Notes under the pieces: generated by a model
What the model saw: the letters and a program-made list of their open reading frames with translations, nothing else
Database searches by the model: none
Told to the model about the DNA's origin: nothing
Sequence record: MN850651.1
Strand: one strand, 5' to 3'
DNA from: Escherichia phage moskry
Length of the DNA: 64,000 bases
Shown: positions 33,482-42,786 of the stretch, piece by piece
Numbering within the stretch: position 1 is the stretch's first letter
Layout: each line of letters starts with the position of its first letter
Translations under genes and position numbers: made by a program

Positions 33482-34030
33482 TTAACGAGCCCATTTAATG
33501 ATTTCTGTAATCAAATAATTACGTTCGCTTGCATTAAATCCTATAACTTTGTTAGCACCATCATGATTAAGTAATTGATACGTTTGGATTTTGTTATGAA
33601 TTGCAAACTCTTCAAAATATGAAATGACTGTATTAAAACCGAATGAAGACAAAGTAATAAGGTCGTCTTCAAAACTTTCAGTCATTTCGTTACGTGTTAA
33701 AATAATTGTGAACACATCATGGTTTTGGCAAAGACGAACATAATCCTGTTCATAAACATCAAGAACCGAGTCCGCATCTTGTCGAATACGTCCATAAACC
33801 CAGTTACTAATATATCCACGGTCTAACAGATAAATCTTAGTAGGGTCTAAATAATTCAACATCGTTTCGAAACAGCCGACTTCATTTCGAGACTTAACAT
33901 CGAAACGCCCATCAACTGTTCGTTTAGGGAAATCAATCTTTACATATCTTTCACTAATTTCCATTATGTCATTAATGAAAGTTGTTTTACCAGCATTATC
34001 CGGCCCGTCTACTAAAATAATTTTAGCCAT
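33482..34030 (-). CDS. P-loop kinase (nucleotide- or sugar-kinase-like), function unknown
   Basis: 182 aa; Walker A ..ILVDGPDNAGKTTF.. near the N-terminus, ..YLLDRGY.. downstream; not present at this position in T4. Confidence 0.5.
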   Translation of the reverse strand: MAKIILVDGPDNAGKTTFINDIMEISERYVKIDFPKRTVDGRFDVKSRNEVGCFETMLNYLDPTKIYLLDRGYISNWVYGRIRQDADSVLDVYEQDYVRLCQNHDVFTIILTRNEMTESFEDDLITLSSFGFNTVISYFEEFAIHNKIQTYQLLNHDGANKVIGFNASERNYLITEIIKWAR

Positions 34031-34031
34031 T

Positions 34032-34931
34032 TTATTCCTCGATTACGACATCTTCGTATTTAGGTATATTATACGGTGAAGAAATTAAAGCATTAAAGTA
34101 GATGAACTCACCAAGACCTGGATGGAATACTTCTTCAGGATTTTCGAAATATTGAATCTTCGGACGTCCTTTAAGAATTTGATAGTACTCAGTTTTAGTT
34201 GGATTAAAAATTCGAATCAGCGCTTCTTCAGGATACTTATTTCTGTCGAAGCTATTATTTGGATCGGTTATATAAAGCGGTTGACCTAATTGAATTGCGC
34301 ATTCAACCACTTGTTCAAAACGATAACACGGGTCACTAATTCGAAATGGATGAAAAATACCATCTAGATGAATAGGAGCCAAATCACCTACAAGACGCTG
34401 CATGATGGAAGGACGTATAACTTTCTGAGTTACGATAATCTTATTACCATCTGCACCTGCGTTAACCAGCACTTCTTTTTGACGTTCATTCAACACAGTA
34501 GTTTGAAGTGAACTATTAACTGACAACATATCGGTTTTTAAGAATTCGTCAATATAAAAACGTGGTTTATTAGGGTCTGCCGTGATATTGAAATTGAATT
34601 CTACATCAAAAGCGCCGTCATAACCAGTGATATCTGTTATTAGAAAATCACAATCATAATAAGCAATTAATGAATCAACCACAAATTCATTTTCAGACCA
34701 GAAATATTTACGAGTGTTATACGCGTTATCTTTATACCATAATGGAACAAACTTAAATTCCGGGAAAAGACGTTCACATTCTTTAATATCAGATGCATTA
34801 CGTGGATATGTAATCACATCACCTGGATTAGCACGGTGCAAATGAAGTTGGAAGTTGCCATCCTTAAGGATAGCATACTGTCCAGTTTCATAAGACCGCA
34901 TACTCAAAATAGGTACGCGGAAAATAGCCAT
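34032..34931 (-). CDS. hypothetical protein (299 aa) occupying the T4 beta-glucosyltransferase position
   Basis: ORF track; stop/start coupled to the kinase and hydroxymethylase genes; no motif I can assign with confidence. Confidence 0.5.
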   Translation of the reverse strand: MAIFRVPILSMRSYETGQYAILKDGNFQLHLHRANPGDVITYPRNASDIKECERLFPEFKFVPLWYKDNAYNTRKYFWSENEFVVDSLIAYYDCDFLITDITGYDGAFDVEFNFNITADPNKPRFYIDEFLKTDMLSVNSSLQTTVLNERQKEVLVNAGADGNKIIVTQKVIRPSIMQRLVGDLAPIHLDGIFHPFRISDPCYRFEQVVECAIQLGQPLYITDPNNSFDRNKYPEEALIRIFNPTKTEYYQILKGRPKIQYFENPEEVFHPGLGEFIYFNALISSPYNIPKYEDVVIEE

Positions 34932-35647
34932 TAGTCAAGAAATCCTTTAACATAATCAAAATCACGTTCAAACACATGGGCACTTACCATGGTATGAGTA
35001 TAATCACCAACTTCTACACCACATTCGTTAGCGATATAATGAAGTAATTTTCCTTGGAGATAAAAATCCAACTGCATAACAACAGCACAGTTCTGAGAAC
35101 GCATATGACAGTGGGTATAAAGCTTACCATCACGAATATAATAAGTCACTGAGTCAGTACATGGATATTCAAGTGTTTCGTCCGAATCAAGCAAAGCCTG
35201 ATCAGAACTTTCTAGAATTTGGAACACAACTCTTCGAGAGTTAGGTTTCTCTTTAAGTTCTTTTAGAAGAGCCGGTAATTGGGCCGCAATGCGAGGACCG
35301 TAGAAAGTGTTGAAGTTTGCAGGCAAAGCGTCTGATTTAGGTTTAGAAATAAATTTAGCGACATTAGGATATGCCTTAAACGCTTCTTCTGCATCAGTAC
35401 CACCAGAAATCATAAACTTCCAGAAGTCTTCGGCATATTCATAAGAGATGCGGTTAATACGTGGGTCGGTCATTTTGAATGATGATGGATTGTCAACAAC
35501 TACTGTCATGGACCCGATTTCATTACAACGTCCAATACGAGAATTAGTTACGAATTCGGGGTTTTCTAAAATTTCACGATTGACTGCTTTAAATGCGGTT
35601 TGAAAATCTGCGGCTTTGATATATTTCATTGTGTTATGTTTTCCCAT
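34931..35647 (-). CDS. 42: thymidylate-synthase-fold dNMP hydroxymethylase (gene-42-like, probably dCMP-specific)
   Basis: 238 aa; ..LEYPCTDSVTYYIRDGKLYTHCHMRSQNCAVVMQLDFY.. aligns with the TS/dCMP-HMase catalytic Cys segment (P-C..Y.(I/V)RD(G/K)K..(Q/N)..RS.D) with Asp at the base-specificity position. Confidence 0.65.
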   Translation of the reverse strand: MGKHNTMKYIKAADFQTAFKAVNREILENPEFVTNSRIGRCNEIGSMTVVVDNPSSFKMTDPRINRISYEYAEDFWKFMISGGTDAEEAFKAYPNVAKFISKPKSDALPANFNTFYGPRIAAQLPALLKELKEKPNSRRVVFQILESSDQALLDSDETLEYPCTDSVTYYIRDGKLYTHCHMRSQNCAVVMQLDFYLQGKLLHYIANECGVEVGDYTHTMVSAHVFERDFDYVKGFLD

Positions 35648-35689: not shown

Positions 35690-35929
35690 TTATTTGAATT
35701 TCTTAGCAATGTTGATATAACGTAAAGCTTCAGAATCTATACTTCCAAGAACACTATGAAGGAATGCATCAGCGTAGTATTCTAGTTGAACAGGTTCTTT
35801 AATCGCTTTAGCCGCTTTAGTTTCAAACAGGCCCATAAGGGCCTTTTTAAGAATTTGTTCGTTGCTATTAATTTTTATGGTCAAAATCTCTTCATTAAGT
35901 TGGTGGTTAAAAGTTTTTCTAGAAATCAT
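35690..35929 (-). CDS. hypothetical protein (79 aa)
   Basis: ORF track; overlaps the upstream gene by 4 nt. Confidence 0.4.
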   Translation of the reverse strand: MISRKTFNHQLNEEILTIKINSNEQILKKALMGLFETKAAKAIKEPVQLEYYADAFLHSVLGSIDSEALRYINIAKKFK

Positions 35930-37104
35930 TCCGGGTACCTCAAAGCGTCGTCAGAGTTAGTTATATCAATAATAGATATAGAATTTTCTGATAACCCATT
36001 TTTAGATAACTGGCGTTTATAATATCTTTCACAATATGTACACGTCGTCCCGCAGATTTCATTAGCACAATCGAAATCTGGATGTCTGAACCACCTTTTT
36101 TCTAAAAAGCCGTCTAACAAAGAGGTTTCAATATTTACCGTATGTGAAAACTCGGTCTCATTTTCAAGAGTGAAAATGGTCTCTAAAGGCTTCCACAATT
36201 CCAACAAATTACCTTCAAACTTTTCAGAAGCATAAGCTTCAAGAACTTTCAAAATGTAGTCGGTGCTACCTGTACGTCCCGAAACTTTAAATTGAGTGAT
36301 ACCAATATCGTTATAAAGTTTCAAATCTTGGGGACGAACAAAACGAGTTCTCAACCAGTTAAATGGGTCTGTATCACGAGCTTTAATACAGTGCTGCATA
36401 GGATATCCGTTTAAGGATTTAGCATCATCAGCCGTAACATCAGTACTATGGAAAATATAGCAAGAGTCACGATAGCTACAATGTGTTGTATACCCTTTAC
36501 CAGCATTAGAACAGAACTCATTTACAAGAACTTCAAATATTATATTGTTCTTATTGCAAAACTCTGCTGCACGCTTCAGGAAAGAAACTGAACGGTTCTT
36601 ATGAATTCCACAGCAGACCTTTTTGATATTATATTGGTCATGCAAGTATTTGATTTGAGTTACAGCATCGACATGTAGAATTGTTGAAACTTCAATCTCA
36701 ATGTCTTTATTGACTTCACGAACAATTTCCATAACAACAGGGTTAGCGATAGTAATACGCCATACGCCTATTGACCAAAGATACTGAACATAATCCTGAA
36801 TAGCTTTCTTCTTCCACTCAACTAGTTCTCTTTTTGAACCAGGATTTATCGTGTTGAGTGTATAGTTAAAGCAAATACCTAATTCGTTACAACGTTTAAC
36901 GTAGTCTTCTAACATCTTTTTGTCAACGTCAGGAAGCCTAAAATCAGGTCTGGCTGCTACAAAAGCCATTTCTCTTGTAGAGCCGTATACTTCGTTTATC
37001 AAGCTATTAGGATAAGTTTTATTGAGCTCTACGATTTTATCAAGAAGAGCTAAATCAAAATTCGTTCCGATTTTAAAAGTATTCATTTTTTTTTTGCATC
37101 TCAC
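35926..37104 (-). CDS. Cys-rich protein of unknown function (392 aa); candidate metal-dependent enzyme/transferase
   Basis: ORF track; Cys clusters (..EFCSNAGKGYTTHCSYRDSCY.. and C-terminal ..CANEICGTTCTYC..); part of the sugar module. Confidence 0.5.
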   Translation of the reverse strand: MRCKKKMNTFKIGTNFDLALLDKIVELNKTYPNSLINEVYGSTREMAFVAARPDFRLPDVDKKMLEDYVKRCNELGICFNYTLNTINPGSKRELVEWKKKAIQDYVQYLWSIGVWRITIANPVVMEIVREVNKDIEIEVSTILHVDAVTQIKYLHDQYNIKKVCCGIHKNRSVSFLKRAAEFCNKNNIIFEVLVNEFCSNAGKGYTTHCSYRDSCYIFHSTDVTADDAKSLNGYPMQHCIKARDTDPFNWLRTRFVRPQDLKLYNDIGITQFKVSGRTGSTDYILKVLEAYASEKFEGNLLELWKPLETIFTLENETEFSHTVNIETSLLDGFLEKRWFRHPDFDCANEICGTTCTYCERYYKRQLSKNGLSENSISIIDITNSDDALRYPE

Positions 37105-37145: not shown

Positions 37146-37547
37146 TTATAGATTAGGTTTATATGATTTAAATGTTTCGAATTCGCCTTTATTCATAAGA
37201 GCTTTGAATTCGTCAGGACGCATAGCTTTGTCGTCGATAATCCAATCATATACTGGTTTATGTGTTAGCAAATTATGGTACTTCAAGCCAATGTTTGCTA
37301 AGTTCTGAATCAGACTTGGGAGAATGTCAATTGCTATACGACCAGGACCTACTGACTTCATACCGCGAGCAGTGTAAAGCGTTATGGTATGCCCTGCATC
37401 ATACAGGGCATTAATGGCAGACACCATTTCGACGTCTGGTTTGAAGTTCACGTAATCACGATTGTTATTCCACTCTGTTATACAATCATCGACATCAAAA
37501 CAAAGATTAAGCATGTTTTCTACACGGTGCATTAGATTCGTTCCCAT
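37146..37547 (-). CDS. HAD-superfamily phosphatase (small, cap-less)
   Basis: 133 aa; motif I ..LCFDVDDCIT.., motif II ..TLYTARG.., motif IV ..WIIDDK.. Confidence 0.55.
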   Translation of the reverse strand: MGTNLMHRVENMLNLCFDVDDCITEWNNNRDYVNFKPDVEMVSAINALYDAGHTITLYTARGMKSVGPGRIAIDILPSLIQNLANIGLKYHNLLTHKPVYDWIIDDKAMRPDEFKALMNKGEFETFKSYKPNL

Positions 37548-39217
37548 TGATGAGTGATATCGCCACCAATTGGGCGATAAGAAACACCAGTTTCTTTATC
37601 AGTTAGTACCCATTTACCAGGATTTTTTGTAATCAGAGTAGCCGTTACAGGTTCTGCTACGTCATAACTAATAGAGCCGTCTTGAAGTACACGGCCCATG
37701 TTACGTAATTGCTTAGTCAGAAGTTCCATACCTTTATAATATGCAGCTACCGCTTTAAGTGGATTATTCTTGAAATAACCACCTAATGCAATCCAGATAA
37801 TTGCCACTGCCAAATGATGATACTCGTTAAACGAACTCATCTTTCCATATTTGTAAACTAATGGATTGATGTTAATAGTCACATTACAAGTTGTTTCATC
37901 AATAGTAAACTGTCCCCAGGTCGGATTAGCGTTGAATTCATCATAACCTGAAACAGCATAAAGCACTTTAGCTTCATCGTACAATTTTGGCCCGTAAATC
38001 TTGGTTTCCCCAAAATATCCACGAGGGTCGATAAACTTGACTTCGCCGTTATCAGTAATCATAGTATTACTGAAGTTCGGGTCACCATGAATAACAGAGT
38101 ACTGTCCCTGAGAACGGTTATGATAACGAATAAGGTGTTCTAAAGCTTGTTTCAGCATTGGCTTCAGACGCCCAATCTTAGTGTAGTTCACATGGGTGAT
38201 TTTACCAAATGAATCAATCAATGGTTGAATGCTTTCACAACGATCAATAACTTTCGTATAGAATTCTTTAGTGAAATCACGGCGAACAGTTTCAGGACTT
38301 ACAAAATAAGTGTCTGTGCTGAATTTCAGTGCATCTAAAATTGCATCAACAATTTGTGGACGAGCAAGACTTGATTTGGATTTAATATATTCAAATGCCG
38401 GCTTACCTTTAATGCGTTCCATTTCAAAGTTATTTTCATTAACAGAAACTAACTGAGGAACTGAATCTGATTTCACTTTAAGATACCATGAAATCTCATC
38501 TTTCTGAAGAGCTCGACCCTGTTCGGTTAATGCGAATTTAGTTACAGTTTCTTCACCAATTTCAACTGCATTAAAACTACGATTAAGTTCACGAACTTCA
38601 TGAGCTTTTTCAAGTTTAGGCATATCACCTAAATCAATTAGATTCATAAGCTCTGATTTATTGAATGCGCTGCCGTAAAGGAATTCTACGAAATCGCGTC
38701 CTTTGCAGTATTCATGAATTTCCTCATCGGTAGAACCCATATAGAATTCCCAGTCTTTGAACTGATAAATTCCTACAACATTACCACCTGTTGAACCTAC
38801 GTTAGTGATATTTTCACCGTCGAAATTATATCGACATTCGTCACCCTTAACATAGATTGCGTTAACATTCCAAGACCATGAACCAAAATCGGGAATAATA
38901 TCACACCAGTTAACAATTACATTATGGCCGTCTAAATCTTTGTGTAATTTAGCAAGAGCATAAGCAGAACCGTACGCTTCATCAACTGTACGAATAGTCA
39001 CATTGAACCCTTCTTGCTCACAATAAGCTCGAACAGTTTCAGCAAATTTTGAATGAACTACTACAATAATTTCATCTGCGCCAAGGTCAGAATAAATTGT
39101 ATACAAATTGCTCAGAATAGTGTCTTGTTTATAGTTAACAAGCACCTTAGGAATATGATGCGTTATTGGATATAAACGAGTCGCCAGTCCAGCACCAAGA
39201 ATAACAGCTTTTTTCAT
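37532..39217 (-). CDS. bifunctional sugar-1-phosphate nucleotidyltransferase (N) / APH-choline-kinase-like anomeric sugar kinase (C)
   Basis: 561 aa; N-terminus MKKAVILGAGLATRLYPITHHIPKVLV (G-x-G-x-R-L-x-P-x-T..PK-x-L nucleotidyltransferase signature); C-terminal ..VIHGDPNFSNTMIT..VKFIDPRGYFG.. (H-G-D-x-x-x-N and I-D-x-x kinase motifs). Confidence 0.7.
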   Translation of the reverse strand: MKKAVILGAGLATRLYPITHHIPKVLVNYKQDTILSNLYTIYSDLGADEIIVVVHSKFAETVRAYCEQEGFNVTIRTVDEAYGSAYALAKLHKDLDGHNVIVNWCDIIPDFGSWSWNVNAIYVKGDECRYNFDGENITNVGSTGGNVVGIYQFKDWEFYMGSTDEEIHEYCKGRDFVEFLYGSAFNKSELMNLIDLGDMPKLEKAHEVRELNRSFNAVEIGEETVTKFALTEQGRALQKDEISWYLKVKSDSVPQLVSVNENNFEMERIKGKPAFEYIKSKSSLARPQIVDAILDALKFSTDTYFVSPETVRRDFTKEFYTKVIDRCESIQPLIDSFGKITHVNYTKIGRLKPMLKQALEHLIRYHNRSQGQYSVIHGDPNFSNTMITDNGEVKFIDPRGYFGETKIYGPKLYDEAKVLYAVSGYDEFNANPTWGQFTIDETTCNVTININPLVYKYGKMSSFNEYHHLAVAIIWIALGGYFKNNPLKAVAAYYKGMELLTKQLRNMGRVLQDGSISYDVAEPVTATLITKNPGKWVLTDKETGVSYRPIGGDITHQWERI

Positions 39218-39245
39218 GTTGAAGTCCTCATTGGTAAGTAGGAGT

Positions 39246-39270
39246 ATTGTACACTATTCTAGTTAAAGCA
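39246..39270 (-). promoter_or_regulatory. candidate MotA-dependent middle promoter (MotA box TGCTTTA, 12 nt, -10 TACAAT) upstream of the nucleotidyltransferase/kinase gene
   Basis: Read on - strand: GAATGCTTTAAC..TACAAT about 30 nt upstream of the ATG. Confidence 0.4.
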
Positions 39271-39398
39271 TTCATACTTTGCTTGTAGTCCAATCATAAT
39301 CCATCCAATTACAAGTGTTGGAATCATTACTGGAGCCGTTAAGCTCCAGTAGATAGTCATGACAAGCATCAATAGTAAAAGTCCTATTGTTATTGCTT

Positions 39399-40034
39399 TC
39401 ATTGTTCGCCTCGTAACATGGCACCTAGTGCACCGCCTGGATGGAACTTAAGGAAGTCATTAGAGGTAAATCCACGCTCAGACGAAAGGTTGATAGCGAA
39501 CGTATCGATAAGCGCTAACAACAATGTAGTGGACATAGTCGGAGCTAAAGAGTTCTCGTCAACTTCTACCGCGATACCGGTACAGAACGTATAATCAAAA
39601 AGAGCTTCGTATTCTTGTGGAATGTCAGGGTTACAATGCAACAGAATCTGTTTGACGTTCGGGCGAATCATTTTAAGATGCTTAGCCACGCCTATCATTT
39701 CTTCAGTTTTACCAGAACGACTAATATGAATCAACACATCATTAGGCGCAATGAATCCTGCATCACCGTGAGAATAATGCCCAGTGTTCAAGTACATACT
39801 AGGGATACCGAGTGAAGCAAATGTCTCAGAAGCTTTAGTTGCAATATTAGCATTCTTACCAACACCTGTAATAATTACTCGGCTTTCATAATTACTAAGT
39901 CCCGGGCGTCGAAGAGTTTCTAGAATAGCATTATAACGAGCAGGGTTTTGACTAATTACTTTGGCCATAGCGGCCAAAGAAGAAGCTTGTTTTATGATTG
40001 CGTCAATAGCGATAGTAATAGGAGTAGTTTTCAT
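39399..40034 (-). CDS. SIS-domain sugar-phosphate isomerase (arabinose-5-phosphate isomerase-like, no CBS domains)
   Basis: 211 aa; ..ITGVGKNANIATKASETFASLGIPS.., ..HISRSGKTEE.. typical SIS (KpsF/GutQ/KdsD-type) motifs. Confidence 0.65.
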   Translation of the reverse strand: MKTTPITIAIDAIIKQASSLAAMAKVISQNPARYNAILETLRRPGLSNYESRVIITGVGKNANIATKASETFASLGIPSMYLNTGHYSHGDAGFIAPNDVLIHISRSGKTEEMIGVAKHLKMIRPNVKQILLHCNPDIPQEYEALFDYTFCTGIAVEVDENSLAPTMSTTLLLALIDTFAINLSSERGFTSNDFLKFHPGGALGAMLRGEQ

Positions 40035-40074: not shown

Positions 40075-42786
40075 TCAAAAATCGAACATATCGAACAGAG
40101 ATGCTTTCTTCTCGTAATCGAGTTTCGCCGCTGATGTGAATCCTTCAAGTGGTTTAATAAATGTCTTCTCAAGGAGAACCGTGTAGTCCATCCAATGAAG
40201 TACATCATCTTTGATTAAATCAGTGATTTCAGTACCAGAAGGCCATGCGATACATTTATCACCGAATGGGTTTCCTTCACGTAAAGGCAGAACATATACT
40301 TTTTCACCTTCTACAACTTGTGGTGCATCGATATTACCTTTGATAGCCCGGTTATACGTCAGAATTCCACGAATATGGAACGGGCATTTAGGACCAGGGA
40401 ATCCACCTACATCATATTTAGCAATGTTATTCGCAGAAGATACCGACGCGATGCTAATATAATTCAATTGACGGAATTCTTTTTCAAACTCTTTAAAATA
40501 TTCTTGTAATGATTCTTCACCTTCTTGAAGCATACGACGAATACATTCCTTAAGAGCTTTCTGTACTGCTTTAGGGGTTGAAGATTTCTGTGTTTCGAGA
40601 CCCATGATTTTAAGCTTAGGTTCAGCGTATCTAGTTCCTTCCATATCCCACACGTTTAATGCATAACGTTTCTTACCAGTCCAAAATCCACCAATACCTT
40701 TAGAACCAAGCGGAGGTCCAGCGATAGCTTCTCGGTCCATGAACATCAAATGTTGCTTATTATTCATGTATTCGCACATTTCACGGAAACCTCTATCAAT
40801 AGCAGGTTCCATACGTTCACGAGCGAACTTATCTAAGAAGTCTACCCAATGGTTAGTATCGCGGAATTTAGATTCACCAACCTTATCAATAATTTTATCT
40901 GCAGATACGTAAATGGAGTCTGTATCACCATATAGAACGAAAGCTTCACCTTCTGTACCACAAACTTCATTCAGATATTCATTAACTTTACGTTCAATCC
41001 ACTGTAAAGCCATTTGACCAAATGTTGTGATTGCAGTAGCATTACGCAAATCGTAATAACGGAACCAAACGTTGCCAAGTGCACCATAAAGTGAGTTGAT
41101 AAGCAATTTACGGTTAATTTGGGCAGTCATACCTGCAACTTCAGTACGTTGAGCTCTAAACAACATTTCATTAAGAGATTTAGCAGACAACTTTTTAATC
41201 TTTTCTTTAATCTCATCGCTAAAGTCGAAACGATAATCAACATCTAATGGTTCGTCAACAGAAAGATTAGGATTATGCAACGCCTCTTTAATTATTTCAC
41301 CATTACGTTGAGCCGCAAGCATATAACCTTTATGTTCTTTACGTTGATTAAAGACTTTAGTGATTTCAGTTGGAACTACACCATCACGGTCTTTATAATA
41401 CATCATGCCGTTAGGAGAGCAACTGTACACATCAGAAGGACGTTCAGCAACAGCGTTAATATAATCATGCAATGGAGCTACTTTAAACGTTCCTGCTATT
41501 GTTTCTGGGCTAATATTCACTTGGCGAATAATACTTGGATACAGAGATGTAAGGTCGAAACTCATTACATATTTGTATCGATTTGGAATAGGTTCCTTAA
41601 CAAAAGCGCCAGGATAAGGTTGAACTGGATGCGAACGACCTTGTGGAATCACCTTGTTCTGCTCTTTAAGGCTATTGAAAATAATAGCGTCCCAAGTTTT
41701 AATTGGACTGAACACAGATTGAATCTGAATTTTAGCATAATACCCCATGTCCAAACTCAAGTTAATGAACTGGCGTTTAGCATCAATTTGCAATACACGA
41801 TACACGTCGATAATGTTATAAGAAATATATCGTTGGTGATTGCTTTCACGAAGCTTAGAAATAGGGCCGTCATATTTCAGTTTACCAACGTTCAATTCAA
41901 ATTCTGAAATGTAATCCAGAGAATATGACGGTTGGTTCGTGAAAGAGAACTTTTTGTAAAGGTCAATGTAATCAAGAACAGAGATACCGAACAATGTAAT
42001 GATTTCACGAGAACCATACATGTTTTCGATAACTTTAACACGAGTTTTACGATGTGGTGATAAACGTTTCGCAGTAGATTCGCCAAAAATATTCTTGATT
42101 CGGTTATACACATATGGAATATCAAATGACTCAACGTTCCATCCAGTCAAAATGACAGGAGTTTTCTGTTGCCAGAAGTTGAGATATTCCATCAATAATT
42201 CTTTTTCATTATCAAACGGCATATAAACGATTTTGTCGATAATTTCGGATGGAACTTCATCACCACCTTGTTCTTGAAGCTTAGCTGCAATTTCGATAGA
42301 CCATTCTTCTACATTACCATATGGAGAATTCAATAGATCAAATACGTAGAACCTGTCGTCAATTGAGTCATAATGGGTGATGGCATCAATTGGATGTTTT
42401 GCTTGTGACGGCTCAGGGAACCCATCCGGAGATGTTACTTCGATGTCGAAGTTAGCCACACGAATTTTTGTATGGTCGTATTTGATTTCATAGTTATAAG
42501 TGTCAGACAAATACGCCAATTTGAAATCGTCCATGCCAAGTGCTTCAAGTCCGATATCTTCCATGCGTTTAATCCATTGGGAGGCATCACGCATATTAGC
42601 GAACAACTTACGAGTACACGGCTTACCGTAGATATCGAAATATTTCGTAGCCTGACTTTCTGGACAATGAGCAAACAGTGATGGTTTATATTCTACTTCA
42701 CGAGTACGTTCACGGCCATTAGAATCGATGTAACGTTCAAAAATTGAATCACCAATCTGTTCAACCGTTAAGTAAAATTCTTTCAT
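40075..42786 (-). CDS. 43: DNA polymerase gp43 (family B, RB69-type)
   Basis: 903 aa; N-terminus MKEFYLTVEQIGDSIFERYIDSNGRERTREVEYKPSLFAHCPE.. and exo/pol motifs (..FDIEV.., ..YGDTDS..) match the RB69 polymerase sequence as I remember it. Confidence 0.97.
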   Translation of the reverse strand: MKEFYLTVEQIGDSIFERYIDSNGRERTREVEYKPSLFAHCPESQATKYFDIYGKPCTRKLFANMRDASQWIKRMEDIGLEALGMDDFKLAYLSDTYNYEIKYDHTKIRVANFDIEVTSPDGFPEPSQAKHPIDAITHYDSIDDRFYVFDLLNSPYGNVEEWSIEIAAKLQEQGGDEVPSEIIDKIVYMPFDNEKELLMEYLNFWQQKTPVILTGWNVESFDIPYVYNRIKNIFGESTAKRLSPHRKTRVKVIENMYGSREIITLFGISVLDYIDLYKKFSFTNQPSYSLDYISEFELNVGKLKYDGPISKLRESNHQRYISYNIIDVYRVLQIDAKRQFINLSLDMGYYAKIQIQSVFSPIKTWDAIIFNSLKEQNKVIPQGRSHPVQPYPGAFVKEPIPNRYKYVMSFDLTSLYPSIIRQVNISPETIAGTFKVAPLHDYINAVAERPSDVYSCSPNGMMYYKDRDGVVPTEITKVFNQRKEHKGYMLAAQRNGEIIKEALHNPNLSVDEPLDVDYRFDFSDEIKEKIKKLSAKSLNEMLFRAQRTEVAGMTAQINRKLLINSLYGALGNVWFRYYDLRNATAITTFGQMALQWIERKVNEYLNEVCGTEGEAFVLYGDTDSIYVSADKIIDKVGESKFRDTNHWVDFLDKFARERMEPAIDRGFREMCEYMNNKQHLMFMDREAIAGPPLGSKGIGGFWTGKKRYALNVWDMEGTRYAEPKLKIMGLETQKSSTPKAVQKALKECIRRMLQEGEESLQEYFKEFEKEFRQLNYISIASVSSANNIAKYDVGGFPGPKCPFHIRGILTYNRAIKGNIDAPQVVEGEKVYVLPLREGNPFGDKCIAWPSGTEITDLIKDDVLHWMDYTVLLEKTFIKPLEGFTSAAKLDYEKKASLFDMFDF

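Follow-up and report, generated by a model that had tools for sequence, protein, structure and literature searches.

The question raised by this locus is which substance is made by the 561-amino-acid protein encoded on the minus strand at positions 37532 to 39217 of a stretch of DNA from Escherichia phage moskry (sequence record MN850651.1; 64,000 nucleotides, the whole of which is called the window here), and in which order its two catalytic domains act. A preliminary description, made from the letters of the window, had read the gene as a fusion of a sugar-1-phosphate nucleotidyltransferase with an APH/choline-kinase-like kinase that could by itself turn a free sugar into a nucleoside diphosphate (NDP)-sugar. 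Our analysis indicates that the gene is probably the Mosigvirus orthologue of the AfhE-type enzyme that supplies uridine diphosphate (UDP)-D-arabinofuranose for the arabinosylation of 5-hydroxycytosine in phage DNA. What was computed directly is the architecture of the domains, the integrity of the catalytic residues, the near-identity to the RB69 and Bas46 proteins, the conserved linkage to neighboring genes, and the promoter. The gene and its parts are as follows.

37532..39217, minus strand: coding sequence of the AfhE-type bifunctional kinase/nucleotidyltransferase (ATG start, 561 amino acids, coordinates including the stop codon), equivalent to RB69 ORF53_52c and Bas46_0146
38603..39217, minus strand: sugar-1-phosphate nucleotidyltransferase domain, amino acids 1–205, with a minimal MurU/LicC/HddC-like fold (Pfam, profile against PDB, Foldseek)
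39140..39196, minus strand: nucleotide-binding signature GAGLATRLYPITHHIPKVL, amino acids 8–26, with G10, R14, and K24 invariant
37688..38602, minus strand: domain of the APH/choline-kinase (eukaryotic-like kinase) fold, amino acids ~206–510 (profile, Foldseek, Pfam APH in homologues)
38060..38095, minus strand: catalytic loop VIHGDPNFSNTM, amino acids 375–386, with D379 as the catalytic Asp and N384 as the Mg-binding Asn
38015..38035, minus strand: FIDPRGY, amino acids 395–401, with D397 as the metal-binding Asp (DFG equivalent)
37535..37687, minus strand: C-terminal extension of ~50 residues, amino acids 511–561, mostly short beta strands (pLDDT 80–88)

The protein is 99.6% identical to the combined products of RB69 ORF053c and ORF052c and 99.3% identical to Bas46_0146, and the nucleotide sequence of the gene is 98–99.6% identical to that of about 150 Mosigvirus genomes (e.g., PhAPEC2, ECO26.1, JS09, and relatives of RB69). 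The open reading frame (ORF) is encoded in 373 phage records, in 363 of which a single uninterrupted match spans 80% or more of it, and therefore it is not a chance ORF. Homologues were found in phages reported to have arabinosyl- or pentosyl-cytosine DNA, with identities of 57% (DLP-type), 53.9% (Maestro), 52% (Serratia 92A1), and 54% (Shewanella Thanatos-1), and also in 57 Acinetobacter phages. The sequence is thus orthologous to the described members of the AfhE type from RB69, Bas46, DLP-type phages, and Maestro. For the comparisons that follow, 319 homologues were collected at E ≤ 1e-3, and 42 of these, down to 29% identity, were aligned (alignment A1). The ~50-residue C-terminal tail is missing from those listed homologues at or below ~42% identity that cover only 83–91% of the query.

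The N-terminal half was matched by Pfam NTP_transferase at amino acids 3–99 (E = 8.5e-10, above the curated cut-off). When a profile of A1 was compared with PDB, positions 1–135 gave HddC as the best match (4e-14), LicC (1.6e-11), and several mannose-, glucose-, and sugar-1-phosphate nucleotidyltransferases, and the best PDB match in a single-sequence search was LicC, a CTP:phosphocholine cytidylyltransferase (2.1e-5). An AlphaFold2 model built on A1 had a pLDDT of 93.6 and a pTM of 0.90, and its N-terminal half, used in a Foldseek search of PDB, returned MurU (4y7u, 3e-8, target-normalized TM-score 0.66), RmlA, LicC, and HddC. The nucleotide-binding signature announced in the preliminary description is present, with a spacing of G-x-G-x3-R-L rather than the G-x-G-x-R-L given there; the full pattern is G-x-G-x3-R-L-x-P-x-T...PK-x-L, equivalent to the canonical GLGTRL loop with a G-to-A change. 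Eight residues of this half (G10, R14, K24, D106, D195, G197, D198, and K201) are invariant in the 42 homologues. The half therefore has what characterizes the transferase of AfhE-type proteins, namely an RmlA/MurU-like domain with the G-x-G-x3-R-L...K loop and acidic metal ligands. The NCBIfam MurU models scored 24.8 bits against a cut-off of 250, and so the fusion protein is not a MurU equivalog.

In the C-terminal half, positions 217–398 of the A1 profile matched structures of APH(2'')-IIa (3uzr, 3e-7; 3ham, 5.5e-7), and the same enzyme was found when this half of the model was compared with PDB by Foldseek (3ham, 1.7e-7). Pfam APH was matched by 7 of 14 homologues of the C-terminal domain, with a best E value of 2e-10. 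It took the full-length profile of 42 sequences and a comparison of folds to recognize the kinase, as the profile of the 14 C-terminal-domain sequences gave weak kinase matches (E ≥ 0.005). Both motifs named earlier for this half, the Brenner motif HGDxxxxN and the IDxxxY metal-binding motif, are present. K227, E241, G378, D379, N384, and D397 are invariant among the 42 homologues, and H377 is present in at least 90% of them. An APH/eukaryotic-like-kinase fold with an HGDxxxxN loop and a metal-binding Asp, as in AfhE-type proteins, is thus present. Because the catalytic residues are invariant in both halves, both active sites are judged to be conserved, and from the sequence neither half looks degenerate. 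Profile methods, which the preliminary description had proposed as a check, therefore detect a nucleotidyltransferase and a kinase in a single polypeptide, and the structure model agrees.

The fusion family is phrog_4098 in PHROGs v4, where it is labeled "unknown function", and in most GenBank records the protein is a "hypothetical protein", which is why the gene looked novel from its sequence alone. The novelty implied by the preliminary description did not survive, in that the AfhE-type gene was proposed in 2018 and annotated in 2021, and a homologue was characterized biochemically in 2026; even so, the reading of the raw sequence correctly recovered an unusual bifunctional enzyme. Several other names given to the gene or its neighbors in public records were rejected. 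The domain content does not fit mannose-1-phosphate guanylyltransferase or "dCMP deaminase | homing endonuclease" for the fusion gene, nor "phosphoheptose isomerase" for the SIS- or HAD-domain genes next to it. The annotation GlmU, found in several GenBank records, calls for a left-handed beta-helix acetyltransferase domain; no hexapeptide-repeat or left-handed beta-helix acetyltransferase domain was matched by Pfam in the fusion protein at E ≤ 0.1, the NCBIfam GlmU models scored ~22 bits against cut-offs of more than 360, and the structure model shows a kinase fold, not a GlmU-type domain, in the C-terminal half (AlphaFold2, Foldseek).

In the RB69 record (AY303349), one extra C (GCAGTTCGAAATT compared to GCAGTTGAAATT) splits the gene into ORF053c and ORF052c near the domain boundary. 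We compared the site in the window (38500..38640, minus strand) with locus L008 6075-6220 and found that the ORF is intact in the window and in Bas46. The split was considered as evidence against a fusion and rejected as an artifact of the 2003 record: RB69 ORF053c/052c was resequenced, C-29116 of the GenBank entry was found to be a sequencing error, and a single 561-residue protein was expressed (Thomas et al. 2018, PMC6024577).

The same authors proposed the ORF053c/052c product and ORF055c as UDP-arabinose synthesis genes, on the basis of Butyrivibrio proteins in which a homologous region is fused to a SIS domain (PMC6024577), and the 2021 record of Bas46 labels the protein a "putative enzyme involved in UDP-arabinose biosynthesis". 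The fusion protein was described as the RB69 counterpart of AfhE of phage HY126 by Lee et al. (NAR 2026, PMC13326640), who reported that RB69 and DLP3 DNA contains mono-, di-, and tri-arabinosylated 5-hydroxycytosine and not hydroxymethylcytosine, with mono- and di-arabinosylated forms in RB69, and attributed the 5-hydroxycytosine base to a ThyA homologue, an O2- and flavin-using 5-hydroxy-dCMP (5hodCMP) synthase. The DNA of Bas46 was reported to contain 5-arabinose-arabinose-hydroxy-cytosine, the same arabinosyl modifications were reported for the Mosigvirus NP, and UDP-arabinofuranose (UDP-Araf) is accepted in vitro by the DLP3 transferases. D-Arabinose, one of several sugars suggested as candidate substrates in the preliminary description, is thus the one to which the RB69 and Bas46 literature points.

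On the enzyme itself, the account of He et al. (2026) given by Lee et al. (PMC13326640) is that AfhE phosphorylates D-arabinose-5-phosphate (A5P) at C1, yielding Araf-1,5-bisphosphate (Araf-1,5-P2), that AfhF is an Mg-dependent phosphatase that converts Araf-1,5-P2 to Araf-1-phosphate (Araf-1-P), and that the N-terminal domain of AfhE makes UDP-Araf only after the AfhF step. This literature is the source for what the enzymes do, in which order the substrates are used, and that the nucleotide is UDP, and we infer that all of this carries over to the 99%-identical orthologue in the window. The genes that would take part in such a pathway surround the fusion gene, as listed below.

40075..42786, minus strand: DNA polymerase gp43 (T4-like phage)
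39399..40034, minus strand: SIS-domain arabinose-5-phosphate isomerase, 211 amino acids, KpsF/KdsD-like without CBS domains, equivalent to RB69 ORF055c; predicted to convert ribulose-5-phosphate (Ru5P) to A5P
39259..39402, minus strand: strongly hydrophobic 47-amino-acid ORF MKAITIGLLLLMLVMTIYWSLTAPVMIPTLVIGWIMIGLQAKYECFN (Bas46_0147, PHROG 3610), between the isomerase gene and the fusion gene
37146..37547, minus strand: HAD-type phosphatase, 133 amino acids, AfhF-like, RB69 ORF051c, with the motif FDVDDCIT (NCBIfam TIGR01689, capsule biosynthesis phosphatase, 4e-13)
35926..37104, minus strand: U32-family protein, RB69 ORF050c (Pfam Peptidase_U32, 7.7e-11)
34931..35647, minus strand: ThyA homologue at the position of RB69 ORF048c (5-hydroxy-dCMP synthase); Pfam Thymidylat_synt 2.3e-15, function from Lee et al. 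2026
34032..34931, minus strand: 299-amino-acid protein with the position and length of RB69 ORF047c plus ORF046c, putative DNA arabinosyltransferase 1 (Lee et al. Table 1)
33482..34030, minus strand: thymidylate-kinase-like nucleotide kinase, RB69 ORF045c (PHROG 761, 5.8e-45)

All genes of this module lie on the minus strand and are transcribed in the order gp43, SIS protein, 47-amino-acid ORF, fusion, HAD protein, U32 protein, a 79-amino-acid ORF, ThyA homologue, 299-amino-acid protein, and thymidylate-kinase-like protein, and the module matches RB69 ORF055c to ORF045c gene for gene. The SIS protein matched Pfam SIS (1.7e-10), NCBIfam KpsF (2e-32) and KdsD (1e-30), and PHROG 5670, and the 299-amino-acid protein belongs to PHROG 3891, a family labeled as of unknown function. 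In the window, RB69, and Bas46 alike, the genes for the SIS protein, the fusion, the HAD protein, the ThyA homologue, and the glycosyltransferase lie next to one another, and the linkage to an A5P isomerase, an AfhF-like HAD protein, a 5hodCMP synthase, and one or more DNA glycosyltransferases that marks AfhE-type genes was therefore found. At its 3' end the fusion gene shares 16 nucleotides with the beginning of the HAD gene, or 1 nucleotide if the ATG at 37532 is used, and the start of the 47-amino-acid ORF overlaps the SIS stop codon (ATGA). At the position of this small ORF, RB69 has a different, shorter annotated ORF054c.

A comparable arrangement was seen on a 350-kb metagenomic jumbo-phage contig (L006 5135-10997), which encodes in order a SIS protein, a GT2 glycosyltransferase, a 35%-identical fusion (P0082), a HAD protein, and a ThyA homologue; next come an endonuclease-IV-like gene and a dCMP deaminase. 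On the strength of this arrangement, the cytosine-glycosylation module extends well beyond the Straboviridae.

From the published activities and this gene order, the following pathway is proposed. The upstream SIS isomerase would convert host Ru5P to A5P; the C-terminal APH-fold kinase domain, with ATP, would phosphorylate A5P at C1 to give Araf-1,5-P2; the product of the translationally coupled downstream HAD gene would remove the 5-phosphate to leave Araf-1-P; the N-terminal MurU/RmlA-like domain would join Araf-1-P and UTP to form UDP-Araf; and the phage glycosyltransferases would transfer arabinose to 5-hydroxy-deoxycytidine in DNA. Because the 5-phosphate prevents pyranose closure, phosphorylation of C1 before its removal would lock the sugar in the furanose form that is found in UDP-Araf. 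The best-supported interpretation is thus that the kinase and transferase domains catalyze non-consecutive steps with the HAD phosphatase acting between them. Support of the Rosetta-stone kind comes from HAD-SIS-NTP_transferase-APH fusions of 888–955 amino acids, described below, in which a single polypeptide combines all three gene products. Since the phosphatase step intervenes, the fusion protein alone would not turn a free sugar into an NDP-sugar; the making of an NDP-sugar stands from the preliminary description, and the consecutive free-sugar mechanism is not supported, as judged by the A5P substrate reported in the second-hand account of AfhE.

Several points weigh against this interpretation. 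The kinase half is hard to recognize from one sequence: Pfam gave sub-threshold matches to Fructosamin_kin, EcKL, RIO1, and APH at amino acids 308–409 (E values of 0.002–0.03), and phmmer with the kinase domain alone found no match in PDB. Orthology was established with the RB69, Bas46, DLP-type, and Maestro sequences, whereas the enzyme that was assayed is HY126 AfhE. UTP specificity is not readable from the sequence. The substrate order is second-hand, coming from He et al. through Lee et al., and Table 1 of Lee et al. gives another order, phosphatase first and then kinase on free arabinose: gp51 "dephosphorylates Araf5p to Ara", and the C-terminal domain "phosphorylates Ara to Araf1p" (PMC13326640).

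That order in Table 1 corresponds to a salvage-like scheme in which the HAD enzyme would make free D-arabinose, the kinase would phosphorylate its anomeric hydroxyl, and the N-terminal domain would then form NDP-arabinose in consecutive steps, as in the AmgK–MurU pair. The folds agree with this pair, MurU being among the top Foldseek matches and the kinase belonging to the APH family, and a two-domain fusion is most simply explained by consecutive steps. We nevertheless regard this scheme as unlikely. The product is a furanose, whereas free D-arabinose in solution is mostly pyranose. The invariant basic residues of the kinase domain (R213, R326, R399, K417, and K488) fit a negatively charged substrate, whereas APH and choline kinases act on cationic ones, although this is weak evidence. 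The module has a HAD phosphatase gene of its own, translationally coupled to the fusion gene, and a fusion with non-consecutive steps has a precedent in E. coli HldE, a kinase–nucleotidyltransferase fusion of just this kind. Finally, the experiments of He et al., to the extent that Lee et al. relate them (PMC13326640), make AfhE an arabinose-5-phosphate kinase and have AfhF act on Araf-1,5-P2.

The same architecture might serve another sugar or nucleotide, for example a GDP- or CDP-pentose or a heptose or mannose derivative. The best N-terminal profile match is to HddC, a heptose-1-phosphate guanylyltransferase, public annotations vary between mannose-1-phosphate guanylyltransferase, phosphoheptose isomerase, and GlmU, and sequence does not disclose the nucleotide. 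Against this, the SIS neighbor matches KpsF/KdsD (1e-30 to 2e-32) and not GmhA, arabinose is present in the DNA of RB69, Bas46, and the Mosigvirus NP, the DLP3 transferases accept UDP-Araf, and the GlmU version lacks its acetyltransferase domain; we therefore give such a product only a slim chance. Slighter still is the prospect of a LicA/LicC-like pair whose substrate would be an alcohol other than a sugar, for example choline, and whose product would be a CDP-alcohol. It would account for LicC as the best single-sequence PDB match, for a kinase fold common to choline kinases, and for the JGI label "choline kinase" on some homologues, but the gene context consists wholly of sugar-phosphate and DNA-modification genes, SIS and HAD fusions occur among the homologues, and we know of no phosphocholine-bearing product in these phages.

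Supply of UDP-D-arabinofuranose thus being the preferred function, its consequences may be noted. Arabinosylated 5-hydroxycytosine shields the phages of this kind from restriction enzymes and DNA-targeting CRISPR systems but makes them vulnerable to type IV systems such as BrxU/GmrSD; because arabinosylation shields the DNA, an enzyme that supplies UDP-arabinofuranose would be central to a counter-defense pathway. An AfhE-type enzyme would also be a useful biocatalyst for a rare nucleotide sugar.

The preliminary description had placed a MotA-box middle promoter before the gene, and a candidate was found there, with the translation signal that follows it.

39246..39272, minus strand: candidate MotA-dependent middle promoter, consisting of AATGCTTTA (39272..39264), a 12-nucleotide spacer, and TACAAT (39251..39246)
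39226..39229, minus strand: Shine-Dalgarno sequence GAGG, 8 nucleotides before the ATG at 39217 and ~16 nucleotides after TACAAT

The composite pattern TGCTTWA-N11-13-TANNNT was found 11 times in the window compared to 2.0 expected, and none of 100 shuffled sequences reached 11. The bare MotA box WWTGCTTWA was mildly enriched (18 compared to 11.9 expected, with 18 reached in 9 of 100 shuffles), so that only the composite of box and minus-10 element was significant; a sigma-70 promoter scan of the region gave 30 matches compared to 28.6 expected, which is no enrichment. The candidate element upstream of the fusion gene has the textbook layout of a T4 middle promoter and is consistent with middle-phase expression. 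Its MotA box sits in the last codons of the 47-amino-acid ORF. Two further composite matches were seen in the module, one within the fusion gene at 37940..37965 (minus strand), ~390 nucleotides upstream of the HAD phosphatase start, and one at 34068..34092 (minus strand), just upstream of the thymidylate-kinase-like gene (33482..34030).

Of all the proteins of the module, the U32-family protein encoded downstream of the HAD gene is by far the best conserved, being at least 80% identical in 221 of 221 phage records. In a Klebsiella phage, the U32 protein is 86% identical and the AfhE homologue 43%, and this U32 conservation holds even in phages whose AfhE homologue has fallen to 42–54% identity. 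No Acinetobacter phage is among the listed hosts of the U32 protein, although 57 Acinetobacter phages carry the AfhE homologue. More distant U32 homologues (50–58% identity) are encoded in other large-phage and metagenomic contigs (L009 7001-8086, L010 7001-8098, and L011 7001-8083), where they adjoin genes for dCMP deaminase, UDG, thymidylate kinase, dNK, NT5C, and nucleoside deoxyribosyltransferase on contigs without arabinose genes. Ten Cys residues are invariant in the U32 protein, including C340-x4-C345-x3-C349-x2-C352. Lee et al. 2026 (PMC13326640) list it only as a "sugar or heterocycle reductase", and the U32 family includes the O2-independent hydroxylases UbiU/V, TrhP, and RlhA (PMC10990095, PMC6599085, PMC5727448). 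The U32 protein is regarded here as a putative iron-sulfur protein linked to nucleotide metabolism. Given its O2-independent relatives and the use of O2 and flavin by the ThyA-like synthase, we speculate that it might act as an anaerobic pyrimidine C5-hydroxylase that complements the 5hodCMP synthase.

The kinase–transferase core was also found in longer proteins outside phages. Fusions of 888–955 amino acids contain HAD, NTP_transferase, and APH-like kinase domains and mostly a SIS domain as well, and are 29–35% identical to the phage protein over ~88% of the target; examples are listed below.

L002 8001-10781: fusion P0084
L012 9001-11862: fusion P0089
L013 9001-11679: fusion P0118
L005 14-2854: fusion P0092

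No match to a SIS domain was found in P0103 or P0118. One fusion (P0091) is from the transcriptome of the slime mold Ceratiomyxa fruticulosa in EukProt. The fusion genes lie on contigs whose neighboring genes are giant-virus-like. Among these neighbors are RNA polymerase Rpb2, RNA_pol_N, and MutS plus HNH, as well as a family B DNA polymerase (PolB) of 1553 amino acids, a ubiquitin hydrolase, a sulfotransferase, and an RNA ligase; a further contig encodes a Ski2-like helicase, a dUTPase, epimerases, and a GT2 glycosyltransferase. On the contigs examined, no ThyA homologue was nearby, and this suggests a use in glycans rather than in DNA. Judging by the domains, the whole route from Ru5P to an NDP-pentose may be present in one polypeptide, and it is conceivable, if somewhat doubtful, that the series Ru5P, A5P, Ara-1,5-P2, Ara-1-P, and NDP-Araf forms a nucleotide-sugar route of eukaryotic viruses or eukaryotes that feeds glycans. 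Our literature search found no description of such an NDP-Araf route in either. If it exists, the transferase–kinase module would not be only a phage device for DNA modification. In a further set of homologues (P0106, P0108, P0111, P0112, and P0116; 786–790 amino acids), a C-terminal cupin/mannose-6-phosphate-isomerase-like extension stands in place of a separate SIS protein; it may be a different isomerase that feeds the same kinase–transferase core, or it may indicate a different sugar.

Among known systems, the protein is most like the AfhE-type enzymes themselves (HY126 AfhE, RB69 gp52:53, and DLP3 gp82), with which it has in common the two-domain architecture and the same gene neighbors, the phage belonging to the genus of RB69, Bas46, and NP; no functional difference is apparent, and the ORF is intact in the window but split in the RB69 record. 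LicA/LicC has the same two fold families, but consists of separate proteins with a non-sugar substrate and an unrelated gene context. The enzyme FKP of Bacteroides (L-fucokinase/GDP-fucose pyrophosphorylase) is like the fusion protein in having a sugar kinase and an NDP-sugar pyrophosphorylase in one polypeptide, and the arabino/fucokinase-pyrophosphorylase of Leishmania, also a single polypeptide, makes NDP-D-arabinose. In contrast to the fusion protein, these enzymes have a non-homologous GHMP-fold kinase, start from the free sugar, and make GDP-sugars in the pyranose form.

The AmgK–MurU pair was the comparison drawn in the preliminary description, and it is apt for the fold families, in that a minimal RmlA-like uridylyltransferase (MurU) works together with an APH-like kinase for the anomeric position of a sugar (AmgK). 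It is not apt for substrate and step order, as these are two separate proteins that act consecutively on a free amino sugar without a phosphatase, whereas the substrate of the AfhE type, in the second-hand account of its assay, is already 5-phosphorylated and a phosphatase step intervenes. The GmhA/HldE-or-HddA/GmhB pathway to ADP- or GDP-heptose has the same logic: it also begins with the isomerization of a ketose phosphate by a SIS enzyme, after which an anomeric kinase turns the sugar phosphate into a bisphosphate, a HAD phosphatase takes off the distal phosphate, and a nucleotidyl transfer follows, and HddC of the GDP-heptose pathway is the best N-terminal profile match. The two differ in that the HldE kinase is PfkB/ribokinase-like and HddA is a GHMP kinase, whereas the kinase of the fusion protein is APH/eukaryotic-like; that the HldE transferase is of the cytidylyltransferase family, whereas that of the fusion protein is RmlA-like; and that the heptose goes to lipopolysaccharide, whereas the pentose would go to DNA. 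Membership in the HldE type was rejected, as there were no PfkB or CTP_transf_like matches and the folds are APH-like and RmlA-like. The resemblance to the heptose pathway is therefore an analogy of pathway logic and not a matter of membership, and as an analogy it is closer than that to AmgK–MurU.

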